64,000 nucleotides of DNA. Source: a plasmid. Positions 155 through 51,842 of this stretch are shown in pieces. Position 1 is the stretch's first letter, and each line of letters begins with the position of its first letter. The DNA lies in sequence record CP104424.1. One strand, written 5' to 3'. Under the pieces are notes generated by a model. It saw nothing but the letters and a program-made list of their open reading frames with translations, was not told the origin of the DNA and did not search any database. A program made the translations under genes and the position numbers.

Positions 155-835
155 ATGAATTCCAGTACGCTGATATCCGTGATGATACGGCAACAGATAT
201 CCGGTGACGGTATGCAGGAACATATTGATTATCAGATTGAGAAATATCAGTTCAGGGCCAGGAATGAGTCACCGCGACTGATGCGCCAGTGGGAAGATGT
301 CATGCGTGAATGCCATGATACCGGAGCAGGAGCCAGGGAGCGGCTGCGGATTGCCTTACTTAATGTTGATTATGTGACCAGTTTTGAACTGCCGTTTCGT
401 CTGCTGTTAACCCGGACACCGCAGATGATTGACAGCGTGCGGCGGGAATGGCAGCTCAGCCAGAAAAAAGTCGTATTCAATGAGCGGCAGCGGGGATGTG
501 TATACAGTCTGCAGAATGACTTATCCGGCGTGCCGGATAGCTTCAGTTACAGTCTTGCGACGCGAATACGGCGGGCGGACAGCTATGGCATGACGACGCG
601 TTGTTTCACTGATATAGCCGGGCAGGTTAAAGCCCCGACAGCACGGCTGAAACTGGCGCTGGAAAGCGGGTTAATTGTCACCGCGCTGGATGGTCTGTTC
701 TGGCTTGGTATTCAACGTATTGCCGCAGATGTGCAGCGGCTGCGTCAGTCCGGAATGACAATCATCACCCGGGATGTTGAGGTCTCAGACTCGCTGACCG
801 GAACCACACGGGTTGTTTCCGGGTACAGCCTTTGA
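155..835 (+). CDS. hypothetical protein, 226 aa, no recognisable motif
   Basis: ATG-initiated ORF in the variable region upstream of pnd; no TM segment, signal peptide or catalytic motif recognised. Confidence 0.4.
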   Translation: MNSSTLISVMIRQQISGDGMQEHIDYQIEKYQFRARNESPRLMRQWEDVMRECHDTGAGARERLRIALLNVDYVTSFELPFRLLLTRTPQMIDSVRREWQLSQKKVVFNERQRGCVYSLQNDLSGVPDSFSYSLATRIRRADSYGMTTRCFTDIAGQVKAPTARLKLALESGLIVTALDGLFWLGIQRIAADVQRLRQSGMTIITRDVEVSDSLTGTTRVVSGYSL

Positions 836-1910: not shown

Positions 1911-2153
1911 TTAGTGAATATTCTTGCCTGGCTTTTCGGCAATATCAATCCCCTGAAGTTGCATGGATATCCCATGCCCATTGAGCATCTGGCTGTCCAT
2001 GGAATGGATACCGCATGTCATCATCAGGTTGTAACAAAGCGTACTCAGCATGGTGAGCGCCTCTTCTGAGGATTTACAATGTGTATTCATAAGGGCCAGA
2101 AACTGCTCAACAACATCCGGGTTAATGCTGGTACTGTGTATTTCATCCTTCAT
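1911..2153 (-). CDS. hypothetical small protein, about 80 aa (ATG at 2153; track ORF 1911..2231 starts on GTG)
   Basis: Internal ATG is preceded by AAGGA at 6-nt spacing on the minus strand; the upstream GTG start has no RBS. Confidence 0.35.
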   Translation of the reverse strand: MKDEIHSTSINPDVVEQFLALMNTHCKSSEEALTMLSTLCYNLMMTCGIHSMDSQMLNGHGISMQLQGIDIAEKPGKNIH

Positions 2154-2334
2154 GATGTGTCCTTGTTTTTTATTATTTTGCATTTCAGAAAATAACACGA
2201 TGCCTGCAGCCCGGAAAACAGATGTGTGCACACGTAGTCACTTTCCGGCTTTATTTCTGTCCCTGACACAAAATACGTGGTGGCATGAAAAGGATTGTGG
2301 CGGACAGGAAAACGATTAGAATAGCGGCGGGCGC

Positions 2335-2628
2335 TTGAGGCTGTATGCCGAAAGCGTTTTGTGGACGGCATGTAGCAGAAAGCCCCAGGCGATTTTTTTA
2401 TCAATCAACCCAGGGCCCACTGTAATGCCTCAACAACATTATAGTAGCCCGATGACGGCCGAAAGGCAATGGAGGGGCTGCGATGCCACAACGAACGTTT
2501 TTAATGATGTTAATCGTCGTCTGTGTGACGATACTGTGTTTTGTCTGGATGGTGAGGGATTCGCTTTGCGGATTTCGTATCGAGCAGGGAAATACGGTGC
2601 TTGTGGCAACGTTAGCCTACGAAGTTAA
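2335..2628 (+). CDS. pndC: pndC (mok-like leader frame overlapping the killer gene)
   Basis: ORF overlaps the Hok-family pndA frame in another reading frame, as mok overlaps hok; true start uncertain. Confidence 0.45.
   Translation: MRLYAESVLWTACSRKPQAIFLSINPGPTVMPQQHYSSPMTAERQWRGCDATTNVFNDVNRRLCDDTVFCLDGEGFALRISYRAGKYGACGNVSLRS
2395..2470 (-). ncRNA. pndB: pndB (Sok-like antisense RNA); position inferred
   Basis: Hok/Sok-type loci carry an antisense RNA complementary to the mok/hok leader; placed from locus architecture, promoter not mapped. Confidence 0.3.
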
Positions 2629-2635
2629 ACGTTAA
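2483..2635 (+). CDS. pndA: PndA, Hok-family membrane toxin (50 aa) of a post-segregational killing locus
   Basis: Translation MPQRTFLMMLIVVCVTILCFVWMVRDSLCGFRIEQGNTVLVATLAYEVKR is a canonical Hok/PndA sequence with TM helix and conserved SLC/EVK motifs; below the 60-aa track cutoff. Confidence 0.85.
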   Translation: MPQRTFLMMLIVVCVTILCFVWMVRDSLCGFRIEQGNTVLVATLAYEVKR

Positions 2636-2646
2636 CGGGCAACACG

Positions 2647-2667
2647 GCGGCAGGACATCTGCCGCCG
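2647..2667 (+). terminator. perfect 8-bp stem / 5-nt loop (GGCGGCAG-GACAT-CTGCCGCC) just 3' of pndA
   Basis: Inverted repeat seen directly; consistent with the 3' fold-back/terminator of hok-family mRNAs; no T-run. Confidence 0.35.
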
Positions 2668-4310
2668 GATTGTTGCGAAGGCTGACCTCAATGCGCCTTG
2701 TTTGTCTTTTTTACCGGACGACTGCTGGTTGCTGCTGTCCGGCAGCTATTATTTTTTCCGTCCTGTGCGTCATCAATTATGACAGTCGCTCTCATTTGGT
2801 TGTCTCTGGTTAGATGTATTATTAGATATTTTCGGGGTAATTCGATAAAAGTTATCCACTTCAGCACCAGACTGAATGATATATGCAATAAGATCTAAAC
2901 GATGAATCTCGTATCGTGTACGTAACTCCATCATTTCACGCCATGCTAAAATCCTTGATGTTTTCAGTTCAGCCTCTATAAGTTTCCATGTGTTTGTTGA
3001 GATGGCATGTTCTTCCAGCTGACGTAACGAGAACCTATCACTAATGACCAACCATCCCCATCCTCGAGTATGTGCCCATTTGCGACCTGCATTACTTTTT
3101 ATTCTCGTGAGACTCAAGGTCATTCGGTCTGTTGGCTTCACTTCCATAAGTAGGCACCGACCATCAACTGTCGCAATGAGTAAATCTGGATAGTATTTTT
3201 TTGATTTGTTTTTAAAACAATATGGAATAGAAAATGGTTGTTCTTGATAGAAAAGAACCTGATCGCAACATTCTAATAGATTCATTATTTTAAACTCAAG
3301 CCCTGATTCGTACTGGACTGTACGACCTAATTTTTGAGAGTAAAAGAATCCAGATATGTCAGTATCATTAACCGCTCTCTGTGAACATAGCTGTTCTACG
3401 GGGGGAGGAGGTGCGATATATTTTGGCCAATGTGTATTGTCTAGCCATTTACTGAATATGAACTCAACTCTTTCTTTCTTGATTCGGGCTCTTTCCTGAG
3501 CGTGAGCGTGTGCTAATTCTGCTCTTCGTTCACGTAACTTCTGCTTTTGTAATTGTGATATTAATGAGAGCGAATTTTTTATTTCATCTCGTCTTGCTTT
3601 AGGAATGCCTGCGGCAAAAATGATGAATTTGGCGGCTAACTCAGAGGATGTAACGAAATCCCGATGAACAATACGATAAATCCATACTGCTATATCATAT
3701 GGTGAATTACCTATTGAGTTAATAAGGGCTTTAAGGCAAGCTCCAGGTGTCCCTTCATAGCGAGATTTAGCAGCTAGTAAGCCAAGGGCTCGTTCCTGAA
3801 GTTGTCTTACCCTTTCACGGGAAATTCCTAATTTGACGGCAATATCTGCCAGAGAATGAGGTGAATCATCTGTGCCGAGTCGCATTAGAAGAATATATTG
3901 ATGTCGTTTATTAGATAAACTTTCGATAGCAGAATGAATTAGCATAATGACATCATGTTCATCGGCTATATAATCTTTAAAATCTGTATTGGGTTGGCAG
4001 AGGGGGAGTGGGGTATTTTGTTTAAAACTATTCTTTTGTATTTCAACTTTATCATGAGCAATTGTTTTTGCAGTGCTCAATGATATTAAATTATTGATGA
4101 TACTATTGTGTTCTTGGCGAGGAATCTTGTTGAAGTAATTGCTGAGATCATTCACCGTGTTTATATCGTTGAACTCAAGAAACTCAGAAGGAAGCAGGCG
4201 TTTGATTGCTCCACGTATTCCCCCGGACGATCGTTGATGTGTTTGAGTAAGTTTTTTTAGCGAGACGCCCTCCGCTATGGATACGAGAAGACGCTGTAAC
4301 TCTTCAGTAT

Positions 4311-4319
4311 TCCATGGAG
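4311..4319. repeat. IS1 target-site duplication, left copy (TCCATGGAG)
   Basis: Identical 9-mer directly abuts each IS1 end. Confidence 0.9.
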
Positions 4320-4374
4320 GGTAATGCTGCCAACTTACTGATTTAGTGTATGATGGTGATTTTAAGGTGCTTGC

Positions 4375-4650
4375 GTGGCTTCCATTTCCATCAGATGTCC
4401 TTCCTGCTCCGCTACTGAAGGCGTGGTGCGTAACGGCAAAAGCACTGCCGGACATCAGCGCTATCTCTGCTCTCATTGCCGTAAAACATGGCAACTACAG
4501 TTCACTTACACCGCCTCTCAGCCCGGTACGCACCAGAAAATCATTGATATGGCCATGAATGGCGTCGGATGTCGCGCCAGTGCACGCATTATGGGCGTTG
4601 GCCTCAACACGGTTTTACGTCACTTAAAAAACTCAGGCCGCAGTCGGTAA
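4375..4650 (+). CDS. insA: IS1 InsA (transposition inhibitor, N-terminal part of the InsAB' transposase)
   Basis: [43 protein letters not shown]... matches IS1 InsA with its zinc-finger CxxC pairs. Confidence 0.95.
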
Positions 4651-5072
4651 CCTCGCGCATACAACCGGGCAGTGATGTGATTGTCTGCGCTGAAATGGAC
4701 GAACAGTGGGGCTACGTCGGTGCTAAATCACGTCAGCGCTGGCTGTTTTACGCGTATGACAGGATACGGAGGACGGTTGTGGCGCACGTCTTCGGTGAAC
4801 GCACTCTGGCCACACTGGAGCGTCTTCTGAGCCTGCTGTCGGCCTTTGAGGTCGTGGTATGGATGACGGATGGCTGGCCGCTGTATGAATCACGCCTGAA
4901 GGGAAAGCTGCACGTTATCAGCAAGCGTTACACTCAGCGCATTGAGCGACATAATCTGAATCTGAGACAACATCTGGCAAGGCTGGGACGGAAGTCACTG
5001 TCGTTCTCAAAATCGGTGGAGCTGCATGACAAGGTCATCGGGCATTATCTGAACATAAAACACTATCAGTAA
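4569..5072 (+). CDS. insB: IS1 InsB' frame (expressed as InsAB' via -1 frameshift at the A6C run near 4626..4632)
   Basis: Translation ...[21 protein letters not shown]...[10 protein letters not shown] matches IS1 InsB; the TTAAAAAACTC slippery motif is present. Confidence 0.9.
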
Positions 5073-5087
5073 GTTGGAGTCATTACC

Positions 5088-5096
5088 TCCATGGAG
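5088..5096. repeat. IS1 target-site duplication, right copy (TCCATGGAG)
   Basis: Identical to 4311..4319. Confidence 0.9.
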
Positions 5097-5342
5097 TACC
5101 ATGTCGTGCTGGAAAATTGCTGCGGGATTCAGACATGATTTTATCTTTATGTTTTCTAGGTACTGCCTTGAGTGTGTGGATATGATAATTATTTATAATG
5201 ATATTGTTATCTTTTATAGATAACTGATATGCAGAATTGTATTGATTTTGTCTACAGTGGGCAAGACAGTGCTAAGAATTTGTGGGGAAAACATAGAGAC
5301 TCCATGCGGCGTCCTGAGATAGACGGCAGACAGGCATTCTGC

Positions 5343-5377
5343 CTGAAAAGAAAAAGCCGGTTCAGAGAAAACCGGCT
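5343..5377 (-). terminator. rho-independent terminator downstream of excA
   Basis: Stem AGCCGGTT/AACCGGCT followed on the minus strand by a T-rich tract (TTTTTCTTTTC). Confidence 0.55.
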
Positions 5378-5409: not shown

Positions 5410-6063
5410 TCAAAATACTTCTGCAACAGGAACACCGGCAACTTTTTCCCACTCTTTAACCCGATACCGGATCATCTGTGGGAAACGTTCCTTGTACTCA
5501 TATCCACGTGCAGCCATGGTGTGCATGGTGTTGGCCAGCGTCCTTGATGAGATGCCGGAGATCTCAAGAGGAATCATCGGCAGACTCACATAGGTGGTGT
5601 GGATTTCCAGCTTGCCGTCCTCAGCAACCGTGCGGGTAAAGTTGTGAATATCCAGACCAATTACATCCATCACATTGTTTGGATAAATACGCACATACAG
5701 CATGGTGCCGTTTTTAATGTCGATCCCGAAATAACAACTCTTCGAGAATGACAGTTGCTCATAATCGCTGGTCGGCGCAAAGGGACTGCTTTCTTTTATC
5801 TGCTGAACAACCTGCTGGACTTTCTTTTTCTTCGCTCTGGTTTTCATATATAGCCAGAGTGATGGGAGTATTAATAGGAGCCAACTGCCATAAGTATATA
5901 GATATGCTTGAATATCTGTTTCTATATATGGTTCTGTAAGCATCATACCGGTAAATCCTAGAGAACATAGTAATAAAAAAGGAACACCAAATATAAAATA
6001 AGCAGTGCGGATAAGGTAATAATATGCCCACCAGGAAGGATATCTGCTTTTTGTTGTGTTCAT
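5410..6063 (-). CDS. excA: ExcA-like entry (surface) exclusion protein, 217 aa, two N-terminal TM helices then a K-rich linker
   Basis: AT-rich ORF immediately downstream of traY, where R64 excA sits; size and membrane topology fit. Confidence 0.6.
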   Translation of the reverse strand: MNTTKSRYPSWWAYYYLIRTAYFIFGVPFLLLCSLGFTGMMLTEPYIETDIQAYLYTYGSWLLLILPSLWLYMKTRAKKKKVQQVVQQIKESSPFAPTSDYEQLSFSKSCYFGIDIKNGTMLYVRIYPNNVMDVIGLDIHNFTRTVAEDGKLEIHTTYVSLPMIPLEISGISSRTLANTMHTMAARGYEYKERFPQMIRYRVKEWEKVAGVPVAEVF

Positions 6064-49467: not shown

Positions 49468-49538
49468 TAAAGGAAAACCCCCACTATTTTTCCTCGAACT
49501 TGGCGGAACGCAGAAAAATAATGGGGGCCTCACAGAAT
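49468..49538 (-). ncRNA. inc: Inc-type antisense RNA (copy-number control), position inferred
   Basis: Complementary to the repZ leader stem-loop (stem CCCCCACTATTTTT/AAAAATAATGGGGG, loop containing TTGGCGG); promoter not mapped. Confidence 0.4.
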
Positions 49539-49553
49539 ACGGGATAAGTATAT

Positions 49554-49643
49554 ATGAAACCGTACCAGAGATTCAACCCTGTGCAGTGTATAAATACACG
49601 GCACAATCGCTCCGCCATAAGCGACAGCTTGTGGCAGGTCTGA
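49554..49643 (+). CDS. repY: RepY leader peptide, 29 aa (MKPYQRFNPVQCINTRHNRSAISDSLWQV), translationally coupled to repZ
   Basis: 29-codon ORF just upstream of and overlapping the rep start, as in ColIb-P9/IncI-B-K replicons. Confidence 0.8.
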   Translation: MKPYQRFNPVQCINTRHNRSAISDSLWQV

Positions 49644-50662
49644 AGAATACTTCATATAACGCAGTACACTGGAGTCAGTTAGCACCCGAAGAGCAGATCC
49701 GTTTCTGGGAAGACTATGAAGCGGGAAGGGCGACCACTTTCCTGGTTGAACCGGAAAGGAAGCGCACGAAGCGCCGTCGCGGTGAGCACTCCACCAAACC
49801 CAAATGCGAAAATCCGTCCTGGTATCGTCCTGAGCGCTATAAAGCGCTGAAAGGGCAGCTCGGGCACGCCTATAACCGTCTGGTGAAAAAGGACCCGGTG
49901 ACCGGCGAGCAGAGCCTGCGCATGCGCATGTCGCGGCATCCTTTTTATGTACAGAAACGGACGTTCGTCGGTCGCAAATACGCTTTCCGGCCGGAAAAAC
50001 AACGTCTCCTCGATGCCATCTGGCCGGTTCTGGTCAGCTTCAGTGATGCCGGCACACATACCGTGGGGATGAGCGTCACTCGGCTGGCTGAAGAAATCAG
50101 CCCGAAAGACAGCGAGGGACATGTTATTCCGGAACTGGAAGTGACGGTCTCCCGTCTTTCCCGTCTGCTGGCCGAACAGGTGCGCTTTGGTGTGCTGGGG
50201 GTGTCAGAGGAAACAATGTGGGACCGTGAACATCGTCAGCGTCTGCCACGTTACGTCTGGATAACACCGGCAGGCTGGCAGATGCTGGGCGTCGACATGG
50301 TAAAACTTCACGAACAGCAGCAGAAACGACTGCGTGAAAGTGAAATCCGCCAGCAGCTCATTCGGGAAGGTGTTCTGCGTGAGGATGAAGATATCTCCGT
50401 TCATGCGGCCAGAAAACGCTGGTATCTGCAGCGCAGCCAGGATGCCCTGAAGAAGCGCCGAGAAAAAGCCGCAGCCAGCAAGCGTGCCAACCGCCTGAAG
50501 AAATTACCTGTTGACCAGCAGATTTATGAGATGGCTGAGTATCTCCGGAAGCGTCTGCCGCCGGATGAAGCCTATTTCTGTTCCGATGACCATCTGAAGC
50601 GACTGGCCATCAGGGAGTTGCGTCAGCTTGAACTGACGCTGGCTGCCCCGCCACCGCACTAG
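49631..50662 (+). CDS. repZ: RepZ replication initiator, 343 aa from GTG at 49631 (track ORF starts at ATG 49586, 358 aa)
   Basis: GTG lies 8 nt before the repY stop, which fits termination-coupled initiation and a 343-aa RepZ; basic Arg/Lys-rich initiator; followed by the CIS/ori region. Confidence 0.75.
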   Translation: MAGLKNTSYNAVHWSQLAPEEQIRFWEDYEAGRATTFLVEPERKRTKRRRGEHSTKPKCENPSWYRPERYKALKGQLGHAYNRLVKKDPVTGEQSLRMRMSRHPFYVQKRTFVGRKYAFRPEKQRLLDAIWPVLVSFSDAGTHTVGMSVTRLAEEISPKDSEGHVIPELEVTVSRLSRLLAEQVRFGVLGVSEETMWDREHRQRLPRYVWITPAGWQMLGVDMVKLHEQQQKRLRESEIRQQLIREGVLREDEDISVHAARKRWYLQRSQDALKKRREKAAASKRANRLKKLPVDQQIYEMAEYLRKRLPPDEAYFCSDDHLKRLAIRELRQLELTLAAPPPH

Positions 50663-51560
50663 ACAGCATCATTCCCTCAGCACTGAATCATCGCCAGCCC
50701 CTCCGGGGCTTTCGGCGCTGGTTCCGCTCAGCCCAAAATCTGCAGTAATCACCTTAAATCCCCTCAGAGGGGCATATCTGCCCATAAAACCACCTATCAG
50801 TCATCAGAACATGGCCACGTTGTTTCAGTTATCCACATAAATCCGCAAACAAAGAACTTTAAAAAGCTGCAAACCTGAAACAGCAAACCTGCAATATAAT
50901 CCTAACCCCATTATTTAATCCCCTGCGTTGCTTCGCCGCAGGGAAAGTCTTTATCTCTGAAACCACTGTGAACAAATACAAAGAGGCCTTCGCTTGCAGC
51001 GGCCAAGGCCGCGCCGCTCAGAATCTAAAAGCACCTCCCACGCTGACGCGCGGGCCCCGAACCTCACCGTTCTGAAACCACAACAAAAAGACATCAGGAA
51101 TAAAAACACCACACAAACGCAGCACCGTGCCTACCCCTCATAACTGAAAAGCGAGGCCGCCCCCGCCCGAAGGGCGGGAACAACATCGCTTTTAATTATG
51201 AATGTTGTAACTAAGAATCCTCATCGCTGTCAGTCTTCTGGCTGGAAGTCCTCAGTACACGCTCGTAAGCGGCCCTGACGGCCCGCTAACGCGGAGATAC
51301 GCCCCGACTTCGGGTAAACCCTCGTCGGGACCACTCCGACCGCGCACAGAAGCTCTGTCATGGCTGAAAACGGGTATGGCTTAGCAGGGCTGGGGATGGG
51401 TAAGGTGAAATCTATCAATCAGTACCGGCTGACGCCGGGCTTCGGCGGTTTTACTCCGGTATCACATGTAACCACAGCGTGCCGCCTTCCATGCCGCTGG
51501 CGCGGCATATCCTGGTGACGATATCTGAATCGTTATATACTGTGTATATACGTAGTAATG
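50663..51560. other. CIS/oriV region of the RepZ replicon (hairpin-rich, GC-rich blocks)
   Basis: Non-coding 0.9 kb after repZ with perfect hairpins (AGCCCCTCCGGGGCT 50693..50707; CCCGCCCGAAGGGCGGG 51158..51174; CCCGAC...GTCGGG near 51300). Confidence 0.45.
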
Positions 51561-51572
51561 ACGAGGTGATAA

Positions 51573-51842
51573 ATGGCACAGGTTAATATGAGTTTAAGAA
51601 TCGACGCTGAACTGAAGGATGCTTTTATGGCCGCTGCAAAAAGCATGGACCGTAATGGCTCTCAGTTAATTCGGGATTTTATGCGCCAGACCGTTGAACG
51701 GCAGCATAATACCTGGTTCCGTGACCAGGTTGCGGCAGGACGTCAGCAACTCGAGCGCGGCGATGTGCTTCCCCATGACATGGTCGAATCTTCTGCCGCT
51801 GCATGGCGGGATGAAATGAGCAGGAAGGTTTCCGATAAATGA
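51573..51842 (+). CDS. RelB/DinJ/ParD-type antitoxin (ribbon-helix-helix), 89 aa
   Basis: N-terminal RHH-like MAQVNMSLRIDAELKDAFMAAA; 4-bp overlap (ATGA) with the downstream toxin gene. Confidence 0.6.
   Translation: MAQVNMSLRIDAELKDAFMAAAKSMDRNGSQLIRDFMRQTVERQHNTWFRDQVAAGRQQLERGDVLPHDMVESSAAAWRDEMSRKVSDK

Follow-up and report, generated by a model that had tools for sequence, protein, structure and literature searches.

RESULTS

Layout of the locus and the IS1 element

We analyzed a 64,000-nucleotide stretch of the plasmid in sequence record CP104424.1 (the window), in which a complete IS1 element sits inside a minus-strand gene bordered by the pnd toxin-antitoxin locus and excA (Table 1). 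The layout of these genes shows that the neighbors are unaffected by the insertion, and polar effects are unexpected, because the interrupted gene is the last in its direction and pnd is convergent with it. Upstream, excA is intact, and its terminator-like hairpin precedes the native promoter-like sites of the interrupted gene. Rfam matches to an I-complex repZ pseudoknot (positions 49470-49618) and to sok RNA are consistent with an I-complex plasmid backbone. A first-pass annotation, made from the sequence alone, had placed excA next to the interrupted gene and had described the target as AT rich; both descriptions are borne out, the latter by a G+C content of 39% in the interrupted-gene fragment versus 52% in the window (IS1 itself, 52%).

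Table 1. Features at the IS1-bearing locus (positions in the 64,000-nucleotide window)
Feature	Position	Strand	Basis or remark
pnd (hok/sok-type) toxin-antitoxin locus	2329..2635	+	Convergent with interrupted gene
sok RNA	2329-2485		Within pnd; Rfam, 124.7 bits
Hok-family ORF	2483-2635		Within pnd; Hok/Gef family protein
Interrupted gene, 3′ fragment, codons 15-528 plus stop	2773..4319	-	DNA 100% identical to pCT_066 / WP_000004564.1
Putative hybrid promoter-like site created at the IS1 left junction	4306..4333	-	Consensus scan only, 9/12 matches
Left target-site duplication copy, 9 bp, TCCATGGAG	4311..4319		Identical to right copy
IS1, complete, 768 bp	4320..5087	+	Length, inverted repeat match, coding content
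Left inverted repeat (IRL)	4320-4342		Within IS1
insA, 91 aa, GTG start	4375..4650	+	Zn_ribbon_InsA 5.9e-20, HTH_Tnp_IS1 4.9e-30 (Pfam); NF033558 IS1 family transposase
insB′ frame, DDE catalytic part of InsAB′ transposase	4569..5072	+	DDE_Tnp_IS1 1.3e-74; NF033558 3.5e-43
A6C -1 frameshift motif, TTAAAAAACTC	4624..4634	+	Motif position in sequence
Right inverted repeat (IRR)	5065-5087		Within IS1
Right target-site duplication copy, 9 bp, TCCATGGAG	5088..5096		Identical to left copy
Interrupted gene, 5′ fragment, codons 1-16, MSESRSNFPARHGTPW	5089..5136	-	Start is the annotated pCT CDS start
Two promoter-like sites 5′ of native ATG	5182..5264	-	Consensus scan only
excA terminator-like hairpin	5355-5377		Upstream of native promoter-like sites
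excA, upstream neighbor, intact	5410..6063	-	NF033891 1.2e-84; same annotation in pCT

The element has every part that the first-pass annotation had listed for it, including both inverted repeats, insA, insB′, and identical 9-bp flanks. Its inverted repeats are identical at 20 of 23 positions (the left end starts GGTAATGCTGCCAACTTACTGAT and the other end, reverse complemented, GGTAATGACTCCAACTTACTGAT), its reading frames match Pfam families PF03811, PF12759, and PF03400, and the DDE_Tnp_IS1 match of InsB′ spans the whole 131-position profile. The A6C -1 frameshift motif, which in IS1 fuses InsA to InsB′, is in place as well. With its open reading frames and ends intact, this copy is a functional-looking isoform. 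It is 91.3% identical to annotated IS1A (67 substitutions, zero gaps), and other plasmid-borne IS1 copies (E. coli, Shigella, and enterobacterial) reach 99.9% identity to it.

The 9-mer TCCATGGAG that flanks IS1 occurs only twice on the plus strand of the window, with exactly 768 bp between the copies (the chance of such a match at fixed spacing is about 4e-6), and it is single copy in IS-free relatives. Deleting 4320..5096 in silico restores a 528-aa minus-strand ORF that runs from 5136 to 2773 and reads MSESRSNFPARHGTPWNTEELQ..., as expected from the earlier prediction that the flanks would rejoin in frame. The rejoined 2,003-bp locus is found as one uninterrupted, 100% identical piece in many IS-free plasmids, and the event is therefore a simple IS1 insertion, not a rearrangement. 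The earlier call of a simple insertion that left the plasmid backbone in order thus agrees with the contiguous flanks of these relatives.

Identity of the interrupted gene and its intact alleles

The interrupted gene is pCT_066, described as the "unusual putative sigma-70 factor" of plasmid pCT, and encodes the same protein as WP_000004564.1 and pMS7163B_00520; it is a known accessory gene of IncK/B/O/Z plasmids. In pCT (NC_014477.1, the IncK reference) the 1,587-bp gene lies between a Hok/Gef gene and excA-traY, and pMS7163B carries the same 2,003-bp locus at 100% identity, with the gene at 50148..51734 and the same protein. The search for an IS-free allele in related plasmids that the first-pass annotation had suggested thus ends with these two plasmids among others. 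More widely, gene-specific sequence is present in 304 PLSDB records. At least 80% of the gene is found at a single place in 272 of these, and also in 208 of 5,426 complete E. coli genomes.

Effect of the insertion on the gene

IS1 splits the gene between codons 16 and 17, inside a conserved N-terminal RHGxPW motif in which conservation among 39 homologs reaches 90% or more at G13 and W16. The position of the split in this motif supports the start codon as called, and it also supports a loss of function. After codon 16, the 5′ fragment now reads through a single IS1-derived codon (R) to a stop, encoding MSESRSNFPARHGTPWR*. The 573-aa ORF listed at 2773..4494 has its start 175 nt inside IS1, where it runs antisense to insA. 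The first 58 of its codons thus belong to IS1, and its earlier dismissal as an artefact was correct.

The first-pass annotation had further concluded that the gene was knocked out. What stands of this claim is that the promoter, the ATG, and 16 codons are severed and the motif is split; the loss of function itself we infer from this structure, and a truncated protein expressed from the 3′ fragment is possible but unlikely, judging from the signals around the junction. Such a protein is the subject of an alternative account, in which the gene is modified rather than inactivated: a promoter formed jointly by the IS1 end and the gene would drive an N-truncated protein, or the 573-aa fusion ORF would be translated, and either product would retain the HTH and nuclease domains described below. 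IS1 ends reportedly create hybrid promoters, and a putative one does arise here (4333-4306, minus strand), with a -35 TTGGCA in IRL and, after a 16-bp spacer, an AATACT -10 with a TG extension in the gene, pointing toward the 3′ fragment; in-frame restart codons also lie 5′ of the HTH domain (GTG 4155, TTG 4080, ATG 3945). However, the promoter matches the consensus at only 9 of 12 positions, a level reached by 10 sites in 2.9 kb versus 5.8 expected by chance, no recognizable Shine-Dalgarno or ribosome-binding site precedes any of the three restart codons, and a product that lacks the conserved N-terminal motif, or has it split, would probably be impaired. We therefore consider a modified but active gene improbable and favor its inactivation.

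Spread and age of the IS1 allele

A whole-IS query returned more than 5,000 IS1 matches and was uninformative for the allele, and junction queries were used instead. Neither the left nor the right IS1 junction was found among the 72,556 plasmids of PLSDB (with at least 80% of the query required to be covered), the left junction was likewise missing from the 5,426 complete E. coli genomes searched, and as exact patterns the left junction had zero matches in JGI metagenome contigs and the right junction zero in GTDB representative genomes. PLSDB does not contain the source plasmid; for window positions 42000-64000, its best match has 98.9% identity over 90% of the query. One candidate for a shared junction, H41 (NZ_CP075698.1), was rejected, as it carries an unrelated IS1A beside a different excA context that does not include the gene. 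As far as the searched collections go, the IS1 allele thus looks private to the present plasmid. The insertion is probably recent, a view based on database absence, the perfect duplication, and mutation-free flanks rather than on a dated phylogeny; the same observations fit the apparently recent insertion proposed in the first-pass annotation.

The gene has occasionally been disrupted in other ways among relatives. A 1,371-bp in-frame deletion common to 19 PLSDB records, among them IncK2/Z-typed plasmids like NZ_CP024887.1, leaves a 71-aa ORF and spans the window equivalent of 2940-4310, its right edge coinciding with base 1 of the target duplication at IS1. An IS2 insertion in CP088378.1 has a 5-bp duplication at window-equivalent 4288-4292, 19 bp from the IS1 site, and a second, independent IS2 in CP097477.1 and its derivative ON556675.1 has a 5-bp duplication at 3496-3500; there are also a few other truncations. 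The CP088378.1 IS2 and the right deletion edge both fall within 32 bp of the IS1 site. It had been expected that relatives lacking IS1 would show an intact junction, which is true of many but not of the 19 records with the deletion; these deletion alleles do not conflict with a simple insertion in the present plasmid.

IS1-mediated adjacent deletions retain the IS. An adjacent deletion of this type is unsupported as the source of the IncK2/Z deletion allele, there being no IS1 at the junction. Slippage at a CCATG microhomology that lies one base inside both deletion ends predicts G where the junction has T, and thus microhomology alone fits only with one extra substitution. The clustering of breakpoints could stem from a target preference at this site or from selection that favors clean 5′ nulls; the 5′ end may be a preferred null site because partial products are harmful, or it may be a transposition hot spot.

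These breakpoints bear on a second alternative, that the IS1 allele is neither private nor recent and instead reflects an older IS1-related history or a 5′-end hot spot tied to the 1,371-bp IncK2/Z-type deletion. In its favor are the coincidence of the deletion edge with the target duplication, the nearby independent IS2 of CP088378.1, and the resemblance, a loose one, of the left deletion edge (...TCATTTCAC) to the right tip of IS1 (...TCATTACC). Under a uniform model, the chance of at least three of four breakpoints falling within 32 bp is about 0.005 and that of a deletion ending on the duplication edge about 0.0013, both calculated post hoc. Against this, no record in the searched collections has IS1 at either junction, the deletion alleles do not have the IS that an adjacent deletion would have kept, the IS-independent slippage plus one substitution would explain the junction too, and the flanks in the window are 100% identical to intact alleles whereas the left flank of deletion allele L002 (query 1-305) stands at 98.4%. 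We regard an older history as quite improbable and a private insertion as the better explanation. The remaining alternative, that the structure arose by IS1-mediated rearrangement (cointegrate resolution, adjacent deletion or inversion, or IS1-IS1 recombination) or is an assembly artefact, appeals to the fact that such rearrangements are common and that repeats often cause misassembly, but it is effectively refuted already by the perfect direct duplication that brackets IS1, the contiguous and identical flanks of IS-free relatives, the presence of a single IS1 copy in the 64-kb window, and an order of pnd, gene, excA, and traY that matches pCT.

Domains and predicted fold of the interrupted protein

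The only Pfam domains in the protein are Sigma70_r4 (PF04545, residues 150-193, 4.4e-9) and Tn7_TnsA-like_N (PF08722, residues 366-440, 5.3e-12), the latter belonging to a TnsA-like nuclease module that spans residues about 330-510. Homologs (n = 66 at E ≤ 1e-5), most of them with both domains, occur in Dickeya, Pectobacterium, Salmonella, Providencia, Buttiauxella, Mangrovibacter, Xanthomonas, Stenotrophomonas, and Streptomyces. Both domains were matched in all 39 aligned members, and none of the 39 matched Sigma70_r2 or Sigma70_r3 at E ≤ 0.01. In this alignment E351, S352, E355, E406, and K408 do not vary, D392 is almost invariant, and these conserved residues make up the TnsA-type E...D...ExK catalytic set. 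An AlphaFold2 model built from the homolog alignment (pLDDT 89.3) has TnsA (1t0f/1f1z) as its top Foldseek matches in the PDB (E about 4e-4 over 211-238 columns), followed by sigma region 4, and the family profile matches RpoD/SigA region 4 structures at about 1e-15. The score of the protein against NF033179 is 46.8 bits, versus a cutoff of 110.

We rejected two identities for this protein. The protein lacks region 2 and is hence no true sigma factor; regions 2 and 3 are unmatched in the whole aligned family. Nor is it a subunit of a Tn7-like transposase, because tnsB and tnsC are missing nearby, both in the plasmid and in nine homolog contexts (TnsB- or TnsC-type neighbor in 0 of 9). The most economical reading of the profile matches and the predicted fold is that the protein would be an HTH-directed PD-(D/E)xK DNA endonuclease. 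Literature searches found no published function for TnsA-like/sigma-r4 fusions, nor any published assay of protection against phage or foreign DNA.

Genomic contexts of homologs

In the nine contexts, homolog genes are solitary, without a conserved partner, and usually on mobile DNA. Recognized defense genes lie within 8 kb in four of the nine, a small sample without statistical control: an OLD-TOPRIM/UvrD pair (Gabija-like) and an McrB-like ATPase in a Pectobacterium island; an SMC-like ATPase and a SIR2 protein in Xanthomonas; brxA-brxB-brxC with a PglX-like methylase (BREX) in Salmonella; and TIR, PIN, HNH, and STAND-like genes in an integrase-bounded island. An F-like plasmid with ArdA-like antirestriction and RadC genes and a KAP NTPase is a weaker fifth case. 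The Mangrovibacter homolog lies in an integrase island at smpB and the Providencia homolog on a plasmid-like contig, the Streptomyces homolog has nothing suggestive nearby, and the ninth has a HipA-like kinase gene 2.3 kb upstream and no recognized defense system. The protein itself has no real match among PADLOC-DB v2 defense models (weak SspB only, 4e-4, 17.8 bits), and its similarity to MzaA is weak and limited to region 4 (27 bits versus a cutoff of 800). A role of the family in defense or inter-element conflict is a sensible hypothesis, though one that we rate well short of probable.

Published phenotypes of the identical gene

The first-pass annotation had proposed comparing transfer and establishment phenotypes of plasmids with and without IS1, and this comparison is largely in print for the identical gene, with a null outcome (PMC4083329; PMC10286972 S1 Table). 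A pCT_066::aph knockout, whose recombination arms map to window positions 3089-3128 and 4234-4273, equaled wild-type pCT in stability and in conjugation to E. coli and Salmonella, and host growth and biofilm were as for the wild type, with a competitive index of 1.00 (PMC4083329); these assays covered conjugation, stability, growth, biofilm, and competition only (PMC4083329). In TraDIS of pMS7163B, gene 00520 had a logFC of +1.30 after conjugation, below the study threshold of 2, and was filed under "Other genes" (PMC10286972 S1 Table). Assays with phage or incoming DNA are absent from both published studies of the gene (PMC4083329; PMC10286972).

The pCT "sigma factor" PCR primers of Cottell et al. 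map exactly to window positions 3009-3028 and 4278-4297 and define a 1,289-bp amplicon. Because this amplicon lies entirely within the 3′ fragment, the typing PCR would miss IS1 and would score the present plasmid as positive and intact.

DISCUSSION

We propose that one copy of an IS1 isoform transposed by the ordinary mechanism, with a 9-bp staggered target cut, into an I-complex (IncB/O/K/Z-like) conjugative plasmid, and that it landed in codons 14-17 of a pCT_066-type accessory gene that has the pnd toxin-antitoxin locus on one side and excA on the other. IS1 thus cuts off the promoter, the start codon, and codons 1-16 from the remaining 512 codons, and the native product would thereby be lost. 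That product was probably a sequence-directed DNA nuclease of mobile elements, neither a sigma factor nor a transposase subunit. In the laboratory, we expect loss of the gene to leave plasmid transfer and maintenance unchanged, as seen for the identical gene in other plasmids. We hold this account as a whole with high confidence.

The finding is real but routine, an ordinary IS1 in a known, dispensable accessory gene, and it amounts to one more private decay event in a gene whose loss earlier work had found not to alter transfer or maintenance. What our analysis adds is that the gene is named as pCT_066, that the "sigma factor" label is corrected, and that the published null-phenotype data are linked to the IS1 allele. 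Automatic annotation is misleading at this locus, where it would yield either a spurious 573-aa ORF or a pseudogene. The gene itself is the more useful lead, being a conserved HTH-nuclease fusion, misnamed a "sigma factor," that sits on mobile elements.

Two further observations, both new, offer leads: the homologs stand alone on mobile elements and often have defense systems as neighbors, and breakpoints cluster near the IS1 site at the 5′ end of the gene. As a speculation to which we give only about one chance in several, the solitary HTH and TnsA-like nuclease proteins may form a widespread family of single-gene defense or inter-element conflict nucleases carried by plasmids and genomic islands, with the first ~50 bp of the CDS as a preferred site of null mutations. 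If this is true, the IS1 allele would already provide a natural null with which the function of the gene could be tested.

Compared with known systems, the element is a typical member of the IS1 family in its 768-bp length, its ~23-bp inverted repeats starting GGTAATG, the zinc ribbon and HTH of insA, the A6C -1 frameshift, the DDE domain of insB′, and its 9-bp target duplication in an AT-rich gene; it differs from the reference isoform IS1A in sequence, being a divergent copy at 91.3% identity. The restored gene does not differ from pCT_066 at all, with 100% DNA identity over 2,003 bp and pnd and excA as neighbors common to both, whereas in its present state it is split by IS1 and the copies in pCT and pMS7163B are intact. 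The protein shares with the sigma-70 family the region 4 HTH, the reader of the -35 element, but is without regions 2 and 3 and hence lacks the part that contacts core polymerase and the -10 element. Unlike TnsA, the endonuclease subunit of Tn7, it has an N-terminal helical half of ~320 aa with the sigma region 4 HTH, and neither this plasmid nor the nine homolog contexts contain tnsB, tnsC, target-selector genes, or Tn7-like ends. Like TnsA, it matches the TnsA profile over its C-terminal ~200 residues, keeps the catalytic set, and is predicted to adopt a fold that aligns to 211-238 of the ~260 TnsA residues.

Disruption and genomic context of the interrupted gene

Homologues of the IS1-interrupted pCT_066-type gene are solitary (contexts L007/L008, L009, L012, L019, and L020) and often adjoin Gabija-like, McrB, SIR2, BREX, TIR/STAND, or KAP NTPase genes, with plasmids or integrase-bounded islands as alternative settings. 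Their solitary occurrence near defense-type genes or on mobile elements suggests, from homologue context, a putative role for the family in defense or conflict.

In relatives of the plasmid, the gene has been hit by IS2 twice, independently, in backbones that are otherwise 100% identical; the IS1 site and the nearer of these insertions are 19 bp apart. Another relative (L002, NZ_CP024887.1, 3500-3520) carries a 1,371-bp in-frame deletion that leaves a 71-aa ORF. The deletion junction, found in 19 PLSDB records in total, joins window-equivalent positions 2939 and 4311; on the right, the deletion edge coincides exactly with the base that opens the IS1 target duplication. CCATG microhomology lies one base inside each end of the deletion and does not reproduce the observed junction.

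Features in the window and in related plasmids
Feature	Position	Details
226-aa ORF	window 155-835	C-terminal winged-helix HTH_39 domain, 6.4e-6
hok/sok-type pnd locus	window 2329-2635	convergent with interrupted gene; Rfam sok, 124.7 bits; 50-aa Hok-family ORF
pCT "sigma factor" typing primers (published)	window 3009-3028 and 4278-4297	1,289-bp amplicon
IS2 insertion, L004/L006 (CP097477.1 and derivative ON556675.1)	window-equivalent 3496-3500	
IS2 insertion, L005 (CP088378.1)	1948-3288; window-equivalent 4288-4292	
I-complex repZ regulatory pseudoknot and rep ORF	window 49470-50662	Rfam PK-repZ, 188.9 bits

The 358-aa rep ORF lies immediately downstream of the PK-repZ pseudoknot, and the window therefore contains the replicon. 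The pCT homologue of the 226-aa ORF is shorter and is annotated "helix-turn-helix domain-containing protein."

Comparison with pMS7163B and pCT

In pMS7163B TraDIS data, conjugation led to a depletion of insertions in pnd (logFC, -3.44) (PMC10286972). In the same study (S1 Table), excA (pMS7163B_00510) and the counterpart of the interrupted gene (pMS7163B_00520) have logCPM values of 10.7 and 11.2, lower than those of most of the much shorter genes nearby (12 to 14); possible reasons are that Tn5 disfavors AT-rich DNA or that insertions are less well tolerated there. Both pCT "sigma factor" primers anneal within the 3′ fragment of the interrupted gene, and therefore the published typing PCR would score the IS1-disrupted allele as present and normal.
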